Shown piece by piece: positions 1,085-11,764 of a stretch of DNA of 12,115 bases. How positions within the stretch are numbered: position 1 is the stretch's first letter; the number at the start of each line of letters is the position of its first letter. The position numbers and the translations under genes are program-made. Origin of the DNA: Fidelibacterota bacterium. GTDB lineage: Bacteria; Fidelibacterota; Marinisomatia; Marinisomatales; JABMOV01. The stretch lies in contig JBHHUC010000061.1 in NCBI GenBank assembly GCA_046861395.1, positions 1 to 12,115 of the forward strand. Direction: 5' to 3'. The notes below the pieces were generated by a model, which did no database searches, was not told the origin of the DNA, and saw only the letters and a program-made list of their open reading frames with translations.

Positions 1085-1136
1085 TTGAAGTTCCGTCGAT
1101 GACTGGGTAAATTTCGGCCGTTTAAAATGGTAGAAT
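1085..1136 (+). promoter_or_regulatory. Candidate sigma70-type promoter(s) for the downstream operon
   Basis: TTGAAG (1085-1090), a 17-nt spacer, then TAAATT (1108-1113). A second extended -10, TG-G-TAGAAT, lies at 1128-1136. Both fall in the 78-nt gap between the rodA stop and the likely ATG at 1154. Consensus match only. Confidence 0.45.
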
Positions 1137-1153
1137 TTGACCAAAAGGCGCCT

Positions 1154-1972
1154 ATGAAACACTTTCGATCGATCGTACACATCTTCCTTTTCCTGTTCCT
1201 GCTTTCCTCTATTTTTGCACAAAATGACGTTAACCGGGAGCTGAAACGTTTAAATGCCAAAATCAACCGTGAGAAAGTTCGGATTGATTCACTGGAAACG
1301 CAAATTCGTATTATTCTTCCCGAATTGAAGAATACCTTGGCTGCCACTGTTGCCGCCAAATCACAGACTGATTCTGTGGCAATCCTGTTAATCAATCGCA
1401 TTAATACGTTGCAGAATAAAATTCGAATGCTGGAAGATAAAGCCGCTTATACGGACAGTACGAATTTCGAAATCCTGGCGCAGTTGGTCATGATTGAAAA
1501 TAAGATTGTCACTCTGACTAACAGTTTTACGGAAATATATACGCTGAAATCTGAAACGTCTGATCTTTCGACAACAAAAAAAATCACCCCGGCCCAGTAT
1601 AAGAAGCAATACATCAACAGCCTCACGTATTATCAAAACGGTGCTTATGATGATGCCATCGCCGGGTTTACCGAACTGGTCCTGGTCGATCCAATGAATG
1701 AACTGGCTGATAATGCCCAGTACTGGCTGGCCGAATGTTATTATTCACAAAAAAATTATAAGCGTGCCATTATTGAATTTGAAAAAGTCTTCACCTTCCC
1801 CGGCACTGATAAAGATGATGATGCCCAATTGAAATTGGGCCTGGCATACCAAAGCATGGGTGATATTGACAAGGCGAGGGAAGAATACCAGCGATTACTG
1901 GATTATTTCCCCGGAAGTGAATATTTTGAAAAAGCTCGCGATACTCTAAAAAAATTAACAGTGGAAAATTAA
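1154..1972 (+). CDS. Periplasmic coiled-coil + TPR protein, CpoB/YbgF (Tol-Pal associated) family
   Basis: The start is likely ATG 1154 (AAAAGG at 1143-1148), giving signal peptide MKHFRSIVHIFLFLFLLSSIFA|Q. A heptad coiled-coil region follows. The C-terminal TPRs are YbgF-like: YQNGAYDDAIAGF, LADNAQYWLAECYYSQKNYKRAIIEFEKV and KDDDAQLKLGLAYQSMGDIDKAREEYQRLLDYFPGS. Confidence 0.8.
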   Translation: MKHFRSIVHIFLFLFLLSSIFAQNDVNRELKRLNAKINREKVRIDSLETQIRIILPELKNTLAATVAAKSQTDSVAILLINRINTLQNKIRMLEDKAAYTDSTNFEILAQLVMIENKIVTLTNSFTEIYTLKSETSDLSTTKKITPAQYKKQYINSLTYYQNGAYDDAIAGFTELVLVDPMNELADNAQYWLAECYYSQKNYKRAIIEFEKVFTFPGTDKDDDAQLKLGLAYQSMGDIDKAREEYQRLLDYFPGSEYFEKARDTLKKLTVEN

Positions 1973-1975
1973 TCT

Positions 1976-2803
1976 ATGTCAAGAAAGATATTTTATCTAA
2001 CAACTGAAATTACTCCCTTTGCCAACCCTACCATTATCGGTGATTATTCTGCCACAGTACCGCTATTATTACAAGAAAAAGGACACGATATCCGCACTAC
2101 GATTCCAAAATACGGTTATGTGAGTGAACGGAAATATATATTGCGTGAAGTAATCCGTCTGCGGAGTATTCCATTTGAATTTAACGGGGAAGAAGTAAGT
2201 ATTTCCGCCAAGAGCGCCTTCATTCCGAAAACGCGGGTTCAAGTGTATTTTATCGAAGATGTTGATCGTTTTAAACCATTGACGAACCTGGTTTACAAAT
2301 CCAAGAACGGTCGCGTCCTCAGTGATATTGACGAACGATTCGCCTTCTTCAGCAAGGCCACCATGGCCATTTTGCCCCATCTTTTCTGGGCACCGGAAAT
2401 TGTGATCTGTAACGGCTGGCAGACCTCCTTCGTCCCTGCGCTTTTTCAACAGTTATATCAGGGCGAAGAATTCTACAAGAATATCAAAACCGTTCTGACA
2501 ATTCATTCCATTGATGAGTATGCCGACTTTAAACGATCCTCATATGAAAAGAGTGGCCTGGAGATTCCGGATTGTTTTACCGGTGACACCATCAATGCCT
2601 ATGAAATGGCGGCCCGTTTTGCCGACCGGATCGTGATTTATAATTACCCCGGGGATAATAACGCCAAGAAGTTCGAAAAGCTGTCCTGTGCCAAGGAATT
2701 CGGGGACAAGATAGATGTTTTTGATGTTAAGGATTCTGATGCACCGGATTACCATGCCATTGCAGATCATATGGATGAGAATTTAGGGAACCTCATCGAC
2801 TGA
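1976..2803 (+). CDS. Truncated glycogen/starch synthase-like protein (GT5 N-terminal domain only; Bacteroidota-type short form)
   Basis: The N-terminus KIFYLTTEITPF...GHDIRTTIPKYG and later RFAFFSKA...PEIVICNGWQTSFVP...KTVLTIHS align with the GlgA N-terminal Rossmann domain. It is only 275 aa, with no C-terminal GT-B domain, and KTGG is replaced by NPTII. PKYGYVSERKYILREVIRL matches the short Bacteroidota family pattern (PKYG.INERRNQLHEVIRL). Confidence 0.8.
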   Translation: MSRKIFYLTTEITPFANPTIIGDYSATVPLLLQEKGHDIRTTIPKYGYVSERKYILREVIRLRSIPFEFNGEEVSISAKSAFIPKTRVQVYFIEDVDRFKPLTNLVYKSKNGRVLSDIDERFAFFSKATMAILPHLFWAPEIVICNGWQTSFVPALFQQLYQGEEFYKNIKTVLTIHSIDEYADFKRSSYEKSGLEIPDCFTGDTINAYEMAARFADRIVIYNYPGDNNAKKFEKLSCAKEFGDKIDVFDVKDSDAPDYHAIADHMDENLGNLID

Positions 2804-2839
2804 TTTGTAGTACGACCTCCCTAATTAACCCGGACTAAA

Positions 2840-4045
2840 ATGAAAAACATAAAACTGATTACGACTGCCGCCGGACTACTATGGCTAATGGGGTGCGAAT
2901 CCAGTTCCGTTATTACTGCCGACTTAACATCACCTTTGACGGCTTATTCAACCGAACTGCGAGATATTAGTGGCGAAACATATCAATCCCCGCCGGAAAT
3001 GGGAAGCTATTCCAAGCTGTACCTGGGTCGGGAAAATGATTTCTATAATTCCAGAATCCTATTAAAAATGAATCGCATATCGGGGGGATTGGTAACCATG
3101 GAATCGTTATTTGATTCCACGGTAAACATTGATAGTATATATATTGTTCTTCAATCACCCGATACTCTGGTTCCCACCGAAGCTCTTCTGGATTTATACT
3201 ACTTCCCGACGGAAGGGGACTCCATTTTCAATGAAAATGAAACCAATTATTTGAATGTGATCAGTCCGTCCGGAGCGCCGATTGCAAGTGCCGGCTTGTA
3301 CCAGGCGCCACCCGATTCCAATGAGCCTGTTCACCCTATTCTGAAATTATCCATTCCGCAGGATGTCCTGGAATCAATTGCGGATACCTCTGAAAGTAAC
3401 ACCACTAAAAATCGAACATTTTGTATCCAGCCCCAGGATTCGTTAGGGGAACTCCTGACTTTTTACAGCCGTGAGACCGGTGCCGACCCTCGTCTGGATG
3501 TTTACTATACTGTAGCTGTTAATGACAGCACGATCGATACTCTGGTTCAACACTACTATCCGACGCAGGATCTTTCCATTGTGGTTCCACCGGCCAGCCA
3601 ACCGTCTGAATTTTCGGCCCTTCGTGTGGGACGAGCGGCAGGGTTCAAATCGATATTGAAAATTGATTCCATCGTGCAGAAGATTCCGGAAACGGCCTTG
3701 ATCAAAAAAGCAACCCTGAATCTTTTTGTGAAGGATACGATCCAGTCGTTGTCCAAATTATTAATCTATCCTCTGGATCAGGATTATACTCCCATAGATT
3801 CAGTTGTGACGGAAGATAATTTCCAGATTCTGACGGAATACCAGATTTATGCCACTGCCGACAGCATCAGCCGGATATCCATCAATATTAAACGATTATT
3901 GCAGGACTATGTCTTGGACAATGTTGCCAATCATGGCCTGAAATTATTGAGTAATAATGTTTCGCCCTTTACGACACGGGAATACTTTATCCGACAGGGA
4001 ACAGAAACGGATCCCTACCTGGAGGTTGAATATGTCGCACCGTAA
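2840..4045 (+). CDS. Lipoprotein, DUF4270/BamH-like (putative surface-exposed, beta-rich)
   Basis: Signal peptidase II signal MKNIKLITTAAGLLWLMG|C (Cys19). Beta-rich segments include KLYLG, IDSIYIVL, LIKKATLNLFV, ISINIKRLLQDYV and C-terminal PYLEVEY, all reminiscent of DUF4270. It lies directly downstream of the short GT5 gene, as DUF4270 does in Bacteroidota. The CDS and lipoprotein call is strong; the family call is moderate. Confidence 0.65.
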   Translation: MKNIKLITTAAGLLWLMGCESSSVITADLTSPLTAYSTELRDISGETYQSPPEMGSYSKLYLGRENDFYNSRILLKMNRISGGLVTMESLFDSTVNIDSIYIVLQSPDTLVPTEALLDLYYFPTEGDSIFNENETNYLNVISPSGAPIASAGLYQAPPDSNEPVHPILKLSIPQDVLESIADTSESNTTKNRTFCIQPQDSLGELLTFYSRETGADPRLDVYYTVAVNDSTIDTLVQHYYPTQDLSIVVPPASQPSEFSALRVGRAAGFKSILKIDSIVQKIPETALIKKATLNLFVKDTIQSLSKLLIYPLDQDYTPIDSVVTEDNFQILTEYQIYATADSISRISINIKRLLQDYVLDNVANHGLKLLSNNVSPFTTREYFIRQGTETDPYLEVEYVAP

Positions 4046-5294
4046 CTGGATTATTCTTACGCTGGGTCTGGTGAGTACGACTTTTTCCCAGTCAGTCATG
4101 AATGGCTTTGGAATTGGTCAGATCAATTCCATGCTAAATGTATCTTCCCTGGCTAAAGGGTCCTTTGGACTGACTCCGGATTACTCATCGGCCGTGGCCT
4201 TGAATAACCCGGCGACCTGGCACCATTTGAAATATTCCTATATTCAGAATGAATATGCTGGTAGGCAGATAACGAGGGATGGGGGCGGAGTGAATCGATC
4301 CTCAGGATTGAATCGGACACAGGTCATCATTCCCATTAAACAGAAATATTCCATTGGTTTGAGTCTGGCACCATTTTCGAAACAACAACTTCTTCTTGCT
4401 GCGCCGGAAGATTCACTGGCCAATGCCATTACCTTTAATGGTGAGGGAGGAGCAAATATTTTTCGTATTTCCATCGGTGGTCATATCGATAGCAGTGATG
4501 CTTTTGGGTTCAGTCTGTCCTATCTTTTTGGATCATCGCGCCAGGAATATTCTGTTTTCATTGATGAAACCTTGTTTCGGCAAACCCACCGTCTGGCGTA
4601 TGATGGAATATTATTGGACGTATTTTTCTCTACCCGCCGCTTGGAATCGTGGGTCAGGGATTTATCCCTTTACGGTCAAATTCGCATCCCCATCACTGCT
4701 CTGGACGTCAAACAATATTCGTTTTTCCCCTTTGAAGATAATAATGCCTCAGGCTATCATGATCGGTCGAACATTACTTCCCAACAAGATTTTCCCGACC
4801 CCGGGGCGGTTCCTGGGCCGTCGCTGACGGTATTCAACAAGCAGTATAGTCCGACGGAAATTATTTTGGGCGCCATGCGGGGAGATAAATCGTCCTGGAT
4901 AAGTTCTATAGAAATAAAGTATCTGCAAAATAACAGTGCGTTTGATCCCACACTTTCTCCTTTTTACAATCAAATCAGTGGTCAGGTGGGGTTGAACTTG
5001 GCACTTTCGCATTTCGGACCGGATGTTGTGAAAGAGTGGTGGGACCGATTCCGTGTATCAACGGGATATTTTTACAATAATTATGCACTTGAGAATAGAT
5101 CACAGGCGATAATTGAAAATGGTATCGCACTGGGCTTTGGTTTTAAATTTGGCACTACGGAAAACACGTTAGGTTTTTCGTATCAATTGGTAAACACGAC
5201 TGGTTTGCCCGGTGGGATGACTGAATTCAGCAACCGGTTTGCGGTTGGAATCAGTCTGGGCGATATCTGGTTCATAAAAAGGAGACAATTATAA
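4032..5294 (+). CDS. Outer-membrane beta-barrel protein, FadL-like / BamG-like
   Basis: The true start is likely ATG 4032 (GGAGG at 4021-4025), giving 420 aa with signal peptide MSHRNWIILTLGLVSTTFS|Q. The N-terminal plug GFGIG...SLAKGSFG...LNNPATW carries the NPA motif of the FadL superfamily. Alternating amphipathic strands include YSIGLSLAPFS, FGFSLSYLFG and GIALGFGFKFG. The C-terminus is GISLGDIWFIKRRQL. Confidence 0.75.
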   Translation: MSHRNWIILTLGLVSTTFSQSVMNGFGIGQINSMLNVSSLAKGSFGLTPDYSSAVALNNPATWHHLKYSYIQNEYAGRQITRDGGGVNRSSGLNRTQVIIPIKQKYSIGLSLAPFSKQQLLLAAPEDSLANAITFNGEGGANIFRISIGGHIDSSDAFGFSLSYLFGSSRQEYSVFIDETLFRQTHRLAYDGILLDVFFSTRRLESWVRDLSLYGQIRIPITALDVKQYSFFPFEDNNASGYHDRSNITSQQDFPDPGAVPGPSLTVFNKQYSPTEIILGAMRGDKSSWISSIEIKYLQNNSAFDPTLSPFYNQISGQVGLNLALSHFGPDVVKEWWDRFRVSTGYFYNNYALENRSQAIIENGIALGFGFKFGTTENTLGFSYQLVNTTGLPGGMTEFSNRFAVGISLGDIWFIKRRQL

Positions 5295-6572
5295 ATGAAA
5301 AATCCAGTGTTAAAAGTACTCAGTTTGTTAATGCTGGCCGGTTTAATCTCGATGTGTGTTCCACCGGAAAGCGATCCTGATAGTATGAATGCGACAGAAA
5401 TGGCTAAACTGGACTCATTACGGGAATTACGTTGTCCGCGACTCATGAGTTCGGCGGCCGAATATTACCGCAATCAGGATTGGAAAGCGACCGTGAATAT
5501 TTATCGGCAGATACTTGACCTGGGTTGTGACCAATGGAATCCCACCTATGCCCCTCCCGGTGAAATTTATCTCTATTATGCCATTGCCTATGAATTTCTT
5601 GGCAGTTATGACAGCTCTGAATACATTATCTTAAAAGGATTGAAAGCATTACCTGATAACCAGGATTTATTAAAACGACTGGCCTATTCCTATAAACGTC
5701 AGGGGAAACTGGGTGACGAAATCATTGAACGTGAACGGCTGATGGATCTGAATCCGAATGATACGGAAAATCTCATGGAATTGGTTCGGGCCTATGGCGA
5801 TAATAATGATTGTGACCGGCAGATTGATATTTTGCGGAATGTACTAGAGGTGGAACCAAATAATGAAATTGCCAAGGGTGAACTGGTCGTGGCCTACGAA
5901 AACTGCGGTCGGGATATCCTGGAGCTCTATGCCGAGCGTTGTAATAGTAATCCCGACAATACATCATATTGCATTGATTATGCCGATAAACTCATGGAGG
6001 CGGATCGTCCGGAAGAGGCCGTGGATGTTATGAAGGCTGTTGTCATGACTGACAATACATCCAAGATTGCTTATCGGAAACTGGCCAAGGCTTATGAATT
6101 ATCAGGTGACCTGGAAAATGCCTCTAAAACATATGAAACATTATTTAAAATCGATCCCCGTGACATTTCGATTGCCTTGAAGGTATCAGAAGTGAATACC
6201 CTCATTGACAATTACGGAAAAGCCTTGCGCTGGGCGGATAAGGCCATTGCCATTAATCCCCATTCTGGTGATGCTCTGGCCCAGAAAGGACAGGTATTTT
6301 ACAAGTCTATGAATTATTGTCGCAGCGATGATATTTCCGATGATGACCGCATTGTTGCTTCGCTGGCTTTTAAATACCTGAGCCAGGCCGTGGAAAGCGG
6401 AAATCAGCGCCATCGTTCCTCCATGCAATGGCTGGAAGACAATGAAGTGTTATTTTCCAAAGCCAATTGGTTCATGCTGGATAATGACAAAAAACGTCAG
6501 GGCGCCATCAAACCGGAAAGTAAATGTTATGACTGGGTGACCGAAAGTCTGAAAAAAGATCCATCCTGGTAG
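5295..6572 (+). CDS. Exported TPR-repeat protein (probable lipoprotein), Cys-rich
   Basis: Signal [21 protein letters not shown] is a possible lipobox (Cys21). Multiple TPR-like helical pairs occur, e.g. [30 protein letters not shown] and [30 protein letters not shown]. The start codon abuts the barrel gene's stop (TAA ATG). Confidence 0.8.
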
Positions 6573-6580
6573 GCCGAACA

Positions 6581-7888
6581 TTGTATCTGGAAAACACTGA
6601 TCCTGAATTATACAACATCCTGGCGGGGGAAGTTTCCCGCGAAGATGAAACACTGGAATTGATTGCATCGGAAAACTTTGTCAGTCCCGCCGTCCTGGAA
6701 ATGGCCGGTGGTGTTATGACGAATAAATATGCCGAGGGTTATCCCGGCAAACGGTATTACGGTGGCTGTGAATTTGTAGACCAGGCTGAGAACCTGGCCC
6801 GGGACCGTGCCAAAGCGCTATTCCAGGCCGAATATGTCAATGTTCAGCCTCATTCCGGTTCTCAGGCCAATATGGCCGCACTGCTTACCTTTGCCAAAGT
6901 TGGTGATACGATCATGGGTCTGGATCTGGCCCATGGTGGCCATTTGACCCACGGTAGTCCTGTTAATTTTTCCGGTAAACTGTTCAATGTTGTTCCCTAC
7001 CATGTGAACCGGGAATCGGGCCGGGTGGATTTTGATGAAGTCTACCGGTTGGCTCGTGAACATAAACCGAAGGTGATTATTTGCGGGGGGAGTGCCTATC
7101 CCCGTTATATTGAATTTACCGAATTTCGGGCCGTTGCGGATGAAGTCGGCGCTTTTCTTATAGCTGACATTGCTCATCCTTCCGGGCTGGTTGCTGCTGG
7201 GCTGCATCCGTCGCCCATGCCTTATTGTGATGTGGTGACGACTACGACGCATAAAACATTGCGCGGTCCTCGCGGCGGAATGATCATGATGGGTCATGAT
7301 CGGAAAAATCCATGGGGCATTTCCGCCCCGAAGTCCGGTCGTATAAAACAATTATCCGAATTACTTGATTCTATGGTCATGCCTGGTATACAGGGTGGTC
7401 CACTCATGCATATTATTGCTGCCAAAGCAGTGGCCTTCGGTGAAGCACTGAAACCGGACTTCAAACAGTATGCTTCCCAGATCGTGGCTAATGCCCAGGC
7501 CATGGCACAGGCATTGCTTGATAAGGGTTACACTCTCGTTTCCGGTGGGACGGACACGCATCTTGTATTGGTCGACTTGACTAATAAGGGCATTACCGGA
7601 AAAGCAGCTGAAAATGCCCTGGAAAAGGCCGGTATTACCGTAAATAAAAATATGGTCCCATTCGACACAAGAAGTCCCTTTATTACCAGCGGAATACGTC
7701 TCGGTTCGCCGGCGGTTACCACGCGGGGGATGAAGGAGGATGAGATGAAAACCATTGTGGAATTGATTGATATTATCATTCAAAATAGCGATGATGAGGA
7801 CGTACAAGGGACCGTGCGTTTACGGGTGAAAGAATTATGTGCCGCTTTTCCTTTATACGCCTCTCTTCAGGAAACAATGCAGTCATAA
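6581..7888 (+). CDS. glyA: Serine hydroxymethyltransferase
   Basis: Motifs [48 protein letters not shown]-lysine motif [24 protein letters not shown] and [17 protein letters not shown] start. Confidence 0.98.
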
Positions 7889-7889
7889 G

Positions 7890-8804
7890 ATGCCAACTCA
7901 GGCCACTGTCCGTACGCTGATTTTATTTGCATTGCTGGCGGTTGGTGGATTCCATGGCTGTTCTCCCAAAGCATACATTATCAGTCAGGTCGGCGCGGTC
8001 TTTGAAAATGCCGGTGAACAATATCAGTCCGAAAATGATCCCCAGTTAGTTCGCGAGGCTTTTCCCTTCAATTTGAAGACGCTTGATATTCTTGCGGCTT
8101 CATCTCCGAATAATCGCAATATCTTATCCATTGCCGCCGCTTCCTATACCATGTATACCTATGCATTTATTCTGGAAGACGCAGATCGTATGATAGATGA
8201 AGATTATTCAGATGGGGTTGCTTTGTATGACCGGGCCCTAAATTTATTTTCAAGAGGCAAACAATATGGTACTGGGGCTCTGACTCTGACCTACCCGGAC
8301 TTTGAATCCTGGAGAAAAAATCATACTGAAGCGGCCAGTTTTACTTCCGCTGATATCTATGACCTCTACTGGTTGGCCGCAGCCACGGCCGGGTCCATAT
8401 CTGCCAGTCGCGGGAATCCCAGATATCTGGTTGAATTGCCCGATGTGGGTTGGTTGTTGGAACAGGCTATGCGTTTGGATCCGGACTGGAATAAAGGAGC
8501 TCTATATACGGCCATGATATCCTATACCATGAAACGACCCGATGCTCCGCTGGATGCTGATACCATTGCCGAAGATTATTTCAATAAAGCAGTGACCTTG
8601 TCTAAGGGGAATGATTGTGCGCCTTATCTGGCTTTGGCAGAGTCAGTCTGTGTTCAACGGCAGGAAAAAGAGCGATTTGTGACTTTGCTGAACCAGGCTC
8701 TGGCGGTGGATATCGATGCCGACACGAATCTCCGGCTGGCTAACGTATTGGCTCAGGACCGGGCTCGATGGTTATTGACAAAACTGGATGAACTGTTTTA
8801 TTGA
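7890..8804 (+). CDS. tatT: TRAP transporter T-component (TatT) lipoprotein
   Basis: The start is likely ATG 7890, 1 nt after the glyA stop. It has lipobox GGFHG|C and TatT-type motifs ENDPQLVREAFPFNLKTLD, YTMYTYAF, LYW.AA and LANVLAQDRARWLL. It lies immediately upstream of dctP-dctQM. Confidence 0.85.
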   Translation: MPTQATVRTLILFALLAVGGFHGCSPKAYIISQVGAVFENAGEQYQSENDPQLVREAFPFNLKTLDILAASSPNNRNILSIAAASYTMYTYAFILEDADRMIDEDYSDGVALYDRALNLFSRGKQYGTGALTLTYPDFESWRKNHTEAASFTSADIYDLYWLAAATAGSISASRGNPRYLVELPDVGWLLEQAMRLDPDWNKGALYTAMISYTMKRPDAPLDADTIAEDYFNKAVTLSKGNDCAPYLALAESVCVQRQEKERFVTLLNQALAVDIDADTNLRLANVLAQDRARWLLTKLDELFY

Positions 8805-8812
8805 GTAAACCT

Positions 8813-9811
8813 ATGCGAAAATTATACCCATTGTTAAGTCTGATAATGCTGCTGACCGTTACGCCGGCCAAACAGCGGATTGTAGTGAAAATGGCTACCC
8901 TGGCCCCTGAAGGTACGGACTGGTACGGCATGCTTCTGGAAATGGGCCAGTTATGGAAAGAAGCGACCAACGGTGAAGTCATTTTACGGATTTATCCTAA
9001 TGGGGTGGTGGGTGACGAACGGGACATGATCCGGAAAATGCGGATTGGTCAGATTCAGGCCGCCGCCATCACCACGGAAGGATTATCCGAACTGAACCCG
9101 GATATCAATGCATTCATTACACCTTTGTTGTTTGATTCCTGGGATGATGTGGATTATATCCGGGAAGCCATTGGACCGGAACTGGAAAAGGGCATTGAAG
9201 CTAACGGATTTAAGATTCTGTACTGGGCTGATGTGGGATGGGCCAATTGGTTCGCGACCAAACCCATTATTACTCCCGATGATTTAAAGGAAATGAAAAT
9301 ATTTACCTGGGCCGGAGATTACAAATCGACAGCCTTGTGGAAAAAGGGGGGATATACATCCGTTCCACTGGCTTCCATTGATGTCCTGTCCGGTTTGCAA
9401 ACCGGATTGATCAATGCCATTGGTACCAATCCCCTCGTGGCCTTATCGATGCAGTGGTTTGGCGTCGCGAATCATATGACCGATATCAAATGGGGATTAA
9501 TTACAGCTGGAGTGGTGGTTGATTTACGTACCTGGAATCGCATATCACCGGAAAACCAGCGGGCCATCATGGAAATATCCCAGTCGATCGGGCAAAAACA
9601 TCAGGAAGTGAACCGGCACAAGGACAACGAAGCCATAAAGGTCATGACCCAACACGGGTTAATTGTACATACACTGTCCGAGGAAGAAAAGGCCGAATGG
9701 AAACGGATGATTCAGACCTGGTATCCGTCTATCCGGGGATCGTTCATTCCTGCTGAAATTTTTGATAAAGTCGTCAACCTGATCAATGAAAAACGACTAA
9801 ACGATGAATAA
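8813..9811 (+). CDS. dctP: TRAP transporter substrate-binding protein (DctP family, TatP-type)
   Basis: Signal peptide followed by VKMATLAPEGTDW, LRIYPNGVVGDERDMIRKMRIGQIQAA, PIITPDDLKEMKI and DVLSGLQTGLINA. The start is ATG 8813 or the overlapping TTG at 8801. Confidence 0.92.
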   Translation: MRKLYPLLSLIMLLTVTPAKQRIVVKMATLAPEGTDWYGMLLEMGQLWKEATNGEVILRIYPNGVVGDERDMIRKMRIGQIQAAAITTEGLSELNPDINAFITPLLFDSWDDVDYIREAIGPELEKGIEANGFKILYWADVGWANWFATKPIITPDDLKEMKIFTWAGDYKSTALWKKGGYTSVPLASIDVLSGLQTGLINAIGTNPLVALSMQWFGVANHMTDIKWGLITAGVVVDLRTWNRISPENQRAIMEISQSIGQKHQEVNRHKDNEAIKVMTQHGLIVHTLSEEEKAEWKRMIQTWYPSIRGSFIPAEIFDKVVNLINEKRLNDE

Positions 9812-11600
9812 TATCCGGACCATTTTCAGAGGAACAGAAGATGGGTTGACTTTGCTTGTATTCCTGGGACTGGTATTTATTCCGTTTATTGAAACCGTGA
9901 CGCGCGTCATGGGATTAACGATTGTCCCGTCAGCACCGGTCTTAGTGCAGCATTTAACCTTATGGATAGGATTCATCGGGGCTGTCGTTGCCACCCGTCA
10001 TGGGAAATTACTGGCATTGACTACGACTTCCATCTTTGTTCCACGCAATAGATTTTCCCTGGGACACTGGTCAGCACAGGTAGTTTCCATAATTGTCGTA
10101 TCAGCTCTGGCTTACGGTGCGATTGACCTGATTTTGGTCGAATACCGATATCCCATTAATATCGCCCCCCATCTGCCGCGCTGGACAGCACTGCTGATCA
10201 TGCCCGTTGGATTTGTGGCCATTGCCATCCAGATGGGATTAAAAAGCAGTAAAACCTGGAAATATCCCATTTCCATAGCCGTGGCCGGTATTTCATTCAT
10301 CATGGTTAGCCGTTCGGCCTTTATTCATGATTTGCCCATCATTCTGTGGGTTGGATTTGGCGTTATTCTCATCGCCCTTTTCTTTGGGGCACCCATTTTC
10401 GTCGGACTTGGGGGACTGGCCCTGCTGTACTTCTGGTATGATTATGTTCCTGTTTCATCCATTGCTGCCGAAACTTACCGGATTGTTGTATCACCATCTC
10501 TACCTACCATTCCTTTATTTACCCTGGCGGGTTATTTTCTGGCCGCCAGTAAGGCCTCGGAACGAATGATGTATGTCTTTCGCAGTCTCTTTGGCTGGAT
10601 TCCGGGTGGTACACCAATTATCGTGGTTGTATTAAGCGGCTTTTTTACCGCTTTGACCGGTGGTTCCGGCGTCACAATCCTGGCACTGGGAGGAATTCTC
10701 TATCCCATCCTGAAAAAGGAAGGCTATTCCGAATCCTTCAGCATTGGATTGATTACCGTGGCCGGATCGGTAGGATTGCTGTTTCCTCCCAGTCTGCCGG
10801 CCATTGTATATGGAGTGACGGCCGGAGTATCGGTGAAAGATGTATTCATCGGCGGTTTCATTCCGGGGATTCTTTTATTGGTTTTTATTTCGGGATGGGC
10901 CGTCTATCAGGAAAAATCCCAGGGTATCACGCGGGTACCCTTTTCTATAAGGAATGTTTTATCTTCCATCTGGGATGCGAAATATGAGGCAATCATTCCT
11001 CTGCTTATCCTGACCGGAATTTTCAGCGGATACATGACCCTGGTTGAAACAGCAGCCCTGACCGTGATCTATATTTTAGTGATAGAAATTCTGGTGAACA
11101 GGGAAATCCTCTTAAAATCGATTCCGGGCATTATTCTAGAATGTGCCGCCCTCATCGGTGGCGTACTCATTATTCTGGGAGTGGCCATGGGACTGACTAG
11201 CTATCTAGTCGATGCGCAAATCCCTTATCTGTTATCAACCTGGGTGAAAACGGCAATTACGTCTAAATATGTGTTTCTCCTGGCACTGAATATTTTACTT
11301 CTAGTGGTTGGGTGCCTGATGGATATCTTTTCAGCCATCATTGTGATTGTACCCTTGATTGCCCCCTTAGGCCAGTATTTCGGAATTCACCCCGTTCATT
11401 TGGCAGTCATTTTTATTGCAAATCTGGAGCTGGGCTTTCTGACTCCGCCGGTGGGTATGAATCTCTTTTTATCGGCGTATCGTTTTAATAAGTCAATGCC
11501 GGAGCTCTACCGAGCTACCTGGCCCTTTTTCATTGTCCGTATCATTGCAGTTTTATTGATAACTTATATTCCTATTATAACGTTATGGTTGGTCCTTTGA
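9804..11600 (+). CDS. dctM: TRAP transporter fused small/large permease (DctQM)
   Basis: The N-terminal ~170 aa are DctQ-like (LVQHLTLWIGFIGAVVATRHGKLL, PRW..LIMPVGF). DctM motifs follow: IPLFTLAGYFL, FFTALTGGSG, GSVGLLFPPSLP and NLELGFLTPPVGMNLF. It overlaps the dctP stop by 8 nt. Confidence 0.93.
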   Translation: MNNIRTIFRGTEDGLTLLVFLGLVFIPFIETVTRVMGLTIVPSAPVLVQHLTLWIGFIGAVVATRHGKLLALTTTSIFVPRNRFSLGHWSAQVVSIIVVSALAYGAIDLILVEYRYPINIAPHLPRWTALLIMPVGFVAIAIQMGLKSSKTWKYPISIAVAGISFIMVSRSAFIHDLPIILWVGFGVILIALFFGAPIFVGLGGLALLYFWYDYVPVSSIAAETYRIVVSPSLPTIPLFTLAGYFLAASKASERMMYVFRSLFGWIPGGTPIIVVVLSGFFTALTGGSGVTILALGGILYPILKKEGYSESFSIGLITVAGSVGLLFPPSLPAIVYGVTAGVSVKDVFIGGFIPGILLLVFISGWAVYQEKSQGITRVPFSIRNVLSSIWDAKYEAIIPLLILTGIFSGYMTLVETAALTVIYILVIEILVNREILLKSIPGIILECAALIGGVLIILGVAMGLTSYLVDAQIPYLLSTWVKTAITSKYVFLLALNILLLVVGCLMDIFSAIIVIVPLIAPLGQYFGIHPVHLAVIFIANLELGFLTPPVGMNLFLSAYRFNKSMPELYRATWPFFIVRIIAVLLITYIPIITLWLVL

Positions 11601-11673: not shown

Positions 11674-11764
11674 ACAAAAACAGGAGTAGTTAGTCGAATA
11701 ATCGATATCAGTTTGTTTCCGTCGGGGATCACCGACACTAATCGATAAAGTGGAGATACAATTC

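Follow-up and report, generated by a model that had tools for sequence, protein, structure and literature searches.

A BamG and BamH-like gene pair within a conserved four-gene envelope unit of Marinisomatota

Does the divergent beta-barrel assembly machinery (BAM) known from Bacteroidota, with its accessory proteins BamG and BamH, extend to Marinisomatota, and do genes packed against bamG and bamH supply further partners of it? The question is raised by four tightly coupled genes on contig JBHHUC010000061.1 (Fidelibacterota bacterium, assembly GCA_046861395.1; Marinisomatota below). We analyzed the whole stretch of 12,115 nucleotides (nt), called the window here; an earlier note had proposed that it holds a candidate bamH-bamG operon joined to a half-size glycosyltransferase family 5 (GT5) gene and a tetratricopeptide repeat (TPR) gene. 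We consider it quite probable that this is an ancestral envelope operon of the Fibrobacteres–Chlorobi–Bacteroidetes (FCB) group carrying the Marinisomatota bamH and bamG, and that the TPR protein and the GT5 half are not stable BAM subunits. Loci, genomes and other contigs are cited by our own handles (L, G and C numbers). The core features are as follows.

1976..2803, + strand: N-terminal half of a GT5 enzyme, 275 amino acids (aa); open reading frame (ORF) call with PF08323
2840..4045, + strand: BamH-like lipoprotein (Cys19) with two predicted beta-sandwich domains, 401 aa; fold match
4021..4025, + strand: GGAGG ribosome-binding site for the barrel gene, within the last codons of the lipoprotein gene; seen in the sequence
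4032..5294, + strand: BamG, a 14-stranded FadL-family barrel with C-terminal WFIKRRQL, 420 aa; profile and structure
5295..6572, + strand: TPR lipoprotein (Cys22), positional counterpart of PG0449 and predicted periplasmic scaffold, 425 aa; TPR_14

The coupling of the four genes was confirmed at every junction. A gap of 36 nt in the window sequence separates the GT5 half from the lipoprotein gene, the lipoprotein and barrel genes overlap by 14 nt with the GGAGG placed 6 nt ahead of the barrel ATG, and the TAA of the barrel directly abuts the ATG of the TPR gene (gap of 0 nt).

Judged by profile and predicted structure, the barrel is BamG and not a transport FadL or PorV, as had been proposed. 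Its best and sole significant NCBIfam match was NF053685 (BamG; E 2.4e-26, 92.7 bits). A profile built from 69 Marinisomatota barrels and searched against PDB chains matched solved BamG over the full length (9hiv_F, 1.1e-55; 9n2d_B, 4e-51; 9hjm_F, 9e-45), with TodX next at 1.6e-7; PDB searches with the single sequences of the barrel and of the lipoprotein gave nothing useful. The barrel model (predicted local distance difference test [pLDDT] 92.7; 14 strands counted) aligned to BamG chains with VIA Z scores of 39.1, 36.7 and 36.0 and root mean square deviations (rmsd) of 2.7–3.0, led by 9n2d_B (Z 39.1, rmsd 2.7, 373 residues aligned), compared with Z scores of 31.2 for FadL and 25.8 for chain F of the type IX secretion system (T9SS), which we take to be PorV. 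The mature protein probably starts at Gln20. FadL residue 2–3 aligned to model residue 29–30 in several rows and to 23 in others, and BamG chains aligned from 16–19; the N-terminal extension over FadL came to ∼8 residues, which we counted as the expected extension of ∼10. The barrel thus shares with the Bacteroidota BamG proteins (Fjoh_1412, BT4367 and PG0448; 9n2d_B, 9hiv_F and 9hjm_F) a 14-strand FadL fold, an N-tail longer than that of FadL, a C-terminal WFxKR and a full-length match, and differs from them in its low structure-based identity (14%–16%), its score below the NCBIfam cut-off and an N-tail ∼4 residues shorter than that of BtBamG.

The lipoprotein has the full-length BamH fold in its AlphaFold2 model (pLDDT 90.9); we file it as BamH-like by fold and position, and not as DUF4270, its sequence support being weak. 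The top three Foldseek matches of the model were chains of BAM complexes (9n2d_C, 9hjm_G and 9his_G; E 1.7e-12 to 2.1e-9), aligned end to end over both domains (VIA Z 19.1, 18.5 and 17.1; 352–358 residues; rmsd 4.7–5.6), an outcome in line with the proposed BamH-like identity. Chain 9n2d_C carries the name Bam H in its record, and chain length and match suggest that 9hjm_G and 9his_G are BamH as well. The next match was 8wab, as described for BamH, and the predicted structure has the elongated two-domain fold with a domain resembling a chondroitin-sulfate carbohydrate-binding module (CBM). Cys19 hardly varies among 61 homologues and is the same in all 33 positional homologues, and the protein carries 11 D-S/T-hydrophobic (O-glycosylation) motifs, compared with one or two in its neighbours. 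A Marinisomatota profile, run against a small database, matched DUF4270 proteins in nine out of 11 loci (E 1e-4 to 2e-14), and PF14092 was weakly matched by three of the 33 wider positional homologues (best E 6.9e-4). Known BamH/DUF4270 proteins (Fjoh_0823, BT4306 and PGN_1735; chains 9n2d_C, 9his_G and 9hjm_G) are likewise lipoproteins with a two-domain fold, many such motifs and a GT5 half upstream; the window protein is shorter than these (401 aa vs. 439–520), has no PF14092 match and is only 9%–14% identical to the BamH chains. In one Marinisomatota class (L100, L102, L103, L105, L107 and L109), genes of 760–975 aa, about twice the usual size, occupy the BamH slot and are possibly BamH with extra canopy domains; the long gene of L100 had no Pfam match. 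At L061 (7414–8004) the BamH-like gene is a 196-aa piece, by frameshift or assembly error.

Several results weigh against these identities. The barrel, with 92.7 bits, fails the NF053685 equivalog cut-off of 250 bits, which only one out of 151 Marinisomatota genomes passes; the lipoprotein has no Pfam match, PF14092 (DUF4270) included; none of the 61 homologues matches DUF4270; and two lipoprotein profiles (A1 and A5) failed to reach the solved BamH chains by sequence. The cut-off is narrow, since just 25 out of 81 genomes of the Bacteroidota phylum pass it, and with the barrel below it the BamG label rests on the profile, fold and N-tail tests. One could instead see in the pair a transport-type FadL or PorV beside an unrelated DNRLRE/CBM96 protein, an identity that would suit the sub-threshold barrel as well as the sole family match of the lipoprotein (DNRLRE, E 2.7e-12). 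Yet the BamG chains outscore TodX by at least 37 orders of magnitude in the profile search and lead by 5–8 Z units in the structural alignments, the BamH matches cover both domains, and BamH itself contains a carbohydrate-binding fold of this kind in what is published of the solved complexes. A separate gene of the PorV family, moreover, starts at 11750 of the window (seen to 12115). This alternative is largely refuted by the profile and structure rankings, and we regard it as extremely unlikely.

The pair had been expected to carry the divergent machine beyond Bacteroidota; that extension is already in print (PMC12611786, section 6 and Supplementary Table 1), where BamG and BamH are described as conserved in six out of seven other FCB phyla. 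Supplementary Table 1 of that paper gives adjacent BamG/BamH locus tags for Ignavibacterium, Salinibacter, Gracilimonas, Fibrobacter, Gemmatimonas, Caldithrix and Chitinophaga (e.g., IALB_1455/1454, SRU_0789/0790, FSU_1156/1157, GAU_1453/1452 and Cabys_4206/4207); for lineages of the Caldithrix, Gemmatimonas and Fibrobacter type we take the pairing from these tags. Operons of bamH2-bamG2 are also noted in PMC12578637 and 10.1101/2025.02.17.638638. In BamG2-BamH2 pairs (BT1785-1786 and Fjoh_1686-1685) and in the Ignavibacterium, Salinibacter, Caldithrix, Gemmatimonas and Fibrobacter pairs, bamH adjoins bamG as it does in the window. BamGH beyond Bacteroidota and the pairing of the two genes are therefore known, and Marinisomatota, absent from the BamG/BamH table of PMC12611786, is the added phylum; among the literature matches listed, no title or abstract start linked BamG with Marinisomatota. 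The window pair differs from the second copies that we read (L132, L176 and L080) in being the sole BamG locus found in its genome and in having GT5 and TPR flanks that they lack. At L080 (7177–9683; genome G111), a second copy of bamG that passes the NCBIfam cut-off has a true DUF4270 gene and a Kelch protein as partners, in the manner of bamG2-bamH2 of Bacteroidota, and was possibly acquired. The genome of the window also encodes BamA (an 813-aa frame with LRGY, contig C50) and a BamD over the cut-off (contig C82), and bamG is reported as undeletable in F. johnsoniae (PMC12611786).

Within Marinisomatota, a BamG family match was present in all 151 genomes (E 0.001 or better, a few of them weak). 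We compared 79 loci, comprising all 39 matched relatives and 40 chosen across families from 150 genomes, and found the order GT5-lipoprotein-barrel-TPR in 74 of them, too often for chance; the lipoprotein part of this count is circular, its profile having been built from genes at that slot. The adjacency is conserved in relatives, as anticipated. Among the five exceptions, three are cut by contig ends, one is the second bamG copy at L080, and one has a 913-aa gene under threshold in the lipoprotein slot. In two genomes of 0.9–1.1 Mb (L051 and L053), the four genes are kept, the TPR orthologue is without a lipobox, a CpoB-like gene found upstream in the window is missing from the locus, and SprA is kept. 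The four-gene core of the proposed unit stood; its end coordinates did not hold as boundaries, since further coupled genes flank it on both sides.

1127..1972, + strand: CpoB/YbgF-like coiled-coil and TPR gene, coupled upstream; TIGR02795 E 3.7e-22, 79.1 bits, cut-off 90.1
6581..7888, + strand: glyA, coupled downstream, a housekeeping control for linkage; PF00464 E 1.1e-168

The stop of the CpoB-like gene lies 3 nt from the GT5 ATG and the TPR stop 8 nt from the glyA start, and the four genes are embedded in a longer same-strand run from rodA through genes of a tripartite ATP-independent periplasmic (TRAP) transporter. Because glyA is downstream in 76 out of 79 Marinisomatota loci, linkage within this phylum cannot tell BAM partners from other neighbours. 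Other Marinisomatota classes have a 430-nt TPR-glyA gap, absent in the window, that looked RNA-like and gave no Rfam match; at L085 (9512–9952), the gap is filled by a 146-aa ORF that we take to be RpiB-like. The window itself had no Rfam match, and a promoter and terminator scan stayed close to shuffled background (20 vs. 14.9 and 10 vs. 7.1). Downstream from glyA (7839–11600) lies a TatT-DctP-fused DctQM TRAP transporter, whose linkage is kept across most of the order.

A survey of 81 Bacteroidota-phylum genomes bore on the claim that the window joins two neighbourhoods, GT5-bamH and bamG-TPR, that are otherwise separate. BamG had a strong match in 64 genomes; the 17 with none or a weak one are small, which would fit the published Chlorobiota gap. 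One profile found the GT5 lineage in 81 out of 81, and in 43 of the 64 BamG genomes the GT5 gene lies ≤3.5 kb upstream of bamG (24 full-length, 19 halves). The exact unit of the window, with half and TPR, occurs in 17 of the 81 (six of these loci were read). In genomes of the split type, bamG is located between pantothenate kinase and lptC, and in all 10 Bacteroidia-type genomes with bamG elsewhere the GT5 half directly precedes bamH; primary Bacteroidia bamG copies are thus unlike the window bamG, which adjoins bamH. The two published neighbourhoods are real in Bacteroidia-type genomes, where a TPR gene can follow bamG at its separate locus. The joined state, on the other hand, is widespread and not particular to the window. 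Since the exact unit recurs in 17 out of 81 genomes of another phylum, it looks ancestral in FCB and not newly joined, with the split looking derived, by parsimony over an unrooted comparison. In lineages with full-length GlgA (L139, 9519–10094, and similar loci), a 190-aa HAD-family gene lies between GlgA and bamH.

Turning to the two neighbours, the TPR protein (TPR_14, E 5.3e-19; no specific family in NCBIfam or the ESM Atlas) most likely acts in envelope biogenesis as a periplasmic scaffold or chaperone, with at most transient BAM contact. A C-x-P lipobox falls within the first 60 aa of 76 out of 78 Marinisomatota orthologues. Counting near full-length matches of E 1.3e-34 or better, with at most 22 candidates scored per genome, we found an orthologue in 32 of the 64 BamG-bearing Bacteroidota-phylum genomes, directly 3' of bamG in 32 out of 32, and none in the other 32 or in the 17 genomes without BamG; a 551-aa match at another locus (G231) and a contig-split piece (G178) were left out. 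PG0449 (PGN_1513) of P. gingivalis is a TPR protein of similar length (441 aa) that directly follows bamG (PG0448) as in the window; PMC1887533 reports no counterpart of it in F. johnsoniae or C. hutchinsonii. The two are likened by position, not by sequence alignment; the Marinisomatota protein is a lipoprotein, unlike PG0449, which has a cleaved signal with Gln22 (PMC10653852).

The earlier note nominated both the TPR protein and the GT5 fragment as partners in outer-membrane biogenesis. Both are long-standing neighbours, but probably not stable BAM subunits, because their positional counterparts in B. thetaiotaomicron were not enriched with BamA. In a published pull-down (PMC12578637, Supplementary Table 1), BT_4368, between bamG and lptC, had a log2 fold change (log2FC) of −0.30 (adjusted P 0.82) and BT_4307 one of 1.23 (adjusted P 0.36), compared with 4.12 for BamG and 4.87 for BamH. 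This nomination found weak support, given also that the TPR orthologue was not found in half of the BamG genomes and that the GT5 half, unlike the other three gene products, has no N-terminal hydrophobic stretch or signal peptide. Some considerations pull the other way: the TPR-bamG linkage is tighter than an incidental neighbour would need, transient partners can be lost when complexes are pulled down in detergent, and BT_4368 and BT_4307 were matched to the window genes by position and annotation, not by sequence alignment. A complex prediction for BamG and the TPR protein scored 0.00 in two runs of a job whose controls did not fold, and weighs on neither side.

The GT5 half consists of PF08323 (E 6.6e-38, residues 4–220) and no other domain, in place of the two Rossmann domains of GlgA; its best NCBIfam match, PRK14098 (E 3.5e-33), is below cut-off, and halves across Marinisomatota loci span 268–305 aa. 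KxGGL, which we take to be the GT5 donor-binding loop motif, was absent by eye from 74 Marinisomatota GT5 N-termini and from six other halves read, whereas KTGGL is kept at the same position in 15 out of 17 full-length forms, which also keep the second domain. Among 41 halves, 17 columns are invariant, 14 of them in residues 40–92, a basic stretch mostly skipped by two alignments to solved synthases. Half-size forms were confined to genomes with BamG (39 out of 39), the full enzyme being kept in all 17 genomes without it; in the genome of the window, a full GT5 is present elsewhere (contig C96). In a tree of 49 rows, with 14 of the 74 Marinisomatota loci picked, the halves from Marinisomatota cluster separately (100/100) from those of Bacteroidota, and two half/full changes are needed, so truncation may have happened once or perhaps twice. 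From sequence, we suggest with low confidence that the half is a catalytically dead cytoplasmic pseudo-enzyme that was retained for binding or regulation within envelope metabolism. An ESM Atlas cluster of 63 proteins of ∼811 aa has GT5 and DUF4270 in one chain, either a genuine fusion or the product of read-through in gene calling.

BT4307 and PGN_1736, annotated as short glycogen synthases, belong with PRK14098-type GlgA to the same GT5 lineage as the window half and have the same place before bamH; we matched the two to the half by position, size and annotation, not alignment. Both are listed in published work as essential, BT4307 in B. thetaiotaomicron and PGN_1736 in P. gingivalis, and no other PGN_173x gene appears on the list for the latter (PMC3547785, Table S1). 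In both species the adjacent bamH is reported to be dispensable in vitro, so polarity on bamH does not account for this essentiality. The half thus appears to be essential in two Bacteroidota. Among the literature matches listed, none treated the GT5 half as truncated, essential or a pseudo-enzyme, and the gene tags appeared only in passing mentions.

What, then, could the neighbours do? The half might still work as one subunit of a split glycogen synthase and sit here by accident, as the full GT5 on contig C96 and the glgB and malQ genes upstream in three loci (L154, L156 and L159) would allow. We find this very unlikely, for the half is the only GT5 match in five out of five genomes of 0.9–1.1 Mb, a branching enzyme was matched in none of seven genomes of that streamlined family, KxGGL is lost, and a storage enzyme is not expected to be essential in vitro. 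Alternatively, acting from the cytoplasm, it may assist BamGH indirectly by binding sugar nucleotides or glycans and so regulating the O-glycosylation and lipopolysaccharide that BamH and BamG need. Its constancy ahead of bamH after bamG relocation (10 out of 10), its restriction to BamG genomes, the listed essentiality of PGN_1736 and BT4307 and the many O-glycosylation motifs of BamH speak for such a role; we nonetheless rate it as unlikely, as bamH is dispensable in vitro and the half essential, second bamH-bamG copies (L176 and L080) lack GT5, and the donor-binding motif is lost. The TPR protein, for its part, could be a true lineage-variable periplasmic BAM accessory, BamP-like, that bridges BamG or BamD to SurA or Lpt. 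It directly follows bamG wherever found, was not found in the 17 BamG-less genomes and is kept in 0.9–1.1 Mb genomes (L051 and L053); in P. gingivalis the order is PanK-bamG-TPR-lipoprotein-surA, and PGN_1513 is listed as essential along with genes in series around it (PMC3547785, Table S1). Such an accessory is rather improbable, however, when half of the BamG genomes yielded no orthologue, lptC or glyA directly follows bamG in many loci read, BT_4368 is not enriched with BamA, the published text available for the three solved complexes names no TPR subunit, glyA is equally linked in Marinisomatota, and the essentiality of PGN_1513 may be polar on the essential PGN_1512.

In the ancestral envelope operon that we favour, BamG would insert in the outer membrane and pack against the back of BamA, as in the solved Bacteroidota complexes, its N-tail threading the lateral opening of BamA and its loops holding lipid-anchored, O-glycosylated BamH above the folding site of large barrels. 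The 14-nt overlap would couple 1:1 synthesis of BamH and BamG, and the TPR protein would be co-expressed with them as a periplasmic scaffold or chaperone. The GT5 half may be a remnant of the full GlgA still found at this position in other lineages, with a non-glycogen binding or regulatory job.

Which barrels BamGH would help to fold was approached through a survey of the same 151 Marinisomatota genomes, with five candidates scored per genome and kin not independent. SprA was matched in all 151 (150 over cut-off) and SusC over cut-off in 31; SusC was not found in the genome of the window or in 12 genomes of ∼1 Mb, where a divergent SusC-like protein could be missed, and SusD in none of five genomes. 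A B. thetaiotaomicron control was reversed, with SusC present and no SprA match. SusCD assembly is thus unlikely to be the sole reason that BamGH is kept, because BamG and SprA are present throughout and SusC in a minority. BamGH seems to serve, in general, barrels whose outer parts are large, with SprA the constant candidate client in Marinisomatota, and the T9SS translocon SprA, not SusCD, would be its likeliest client there. A bolder version, to which we give a low probability, would make the GT5 half an essential FCB-envelope pseudo-enzyme whose basic, lineage-specific surface (residues 40–92) acts from the cytoplasm to control a step that BamGH-dependent assembly needs, for instance the supply of glycans; together with the TPR scaffold, the operon would form a three-compartment module with SprA, not SusCD, as its core client.

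Taken as a whole, the earlier reading held for BamG and the BamH-like lipoprotein, and gave way on novelty and on the joining of loci. With this locus, the BamGH map gains a phylum that the published table lacks, together with a likely ancestral gene order. It also splits the published correlation, since most Marinisomatota genomes match BamG and SprA without a SusC over cut-off. Finally, it draws attention to BT4307 and PGN_1736, which are labelled glycogen synthase, appear unable to be one and are nevertheless listed as essential, a gap that lies in tractable species.

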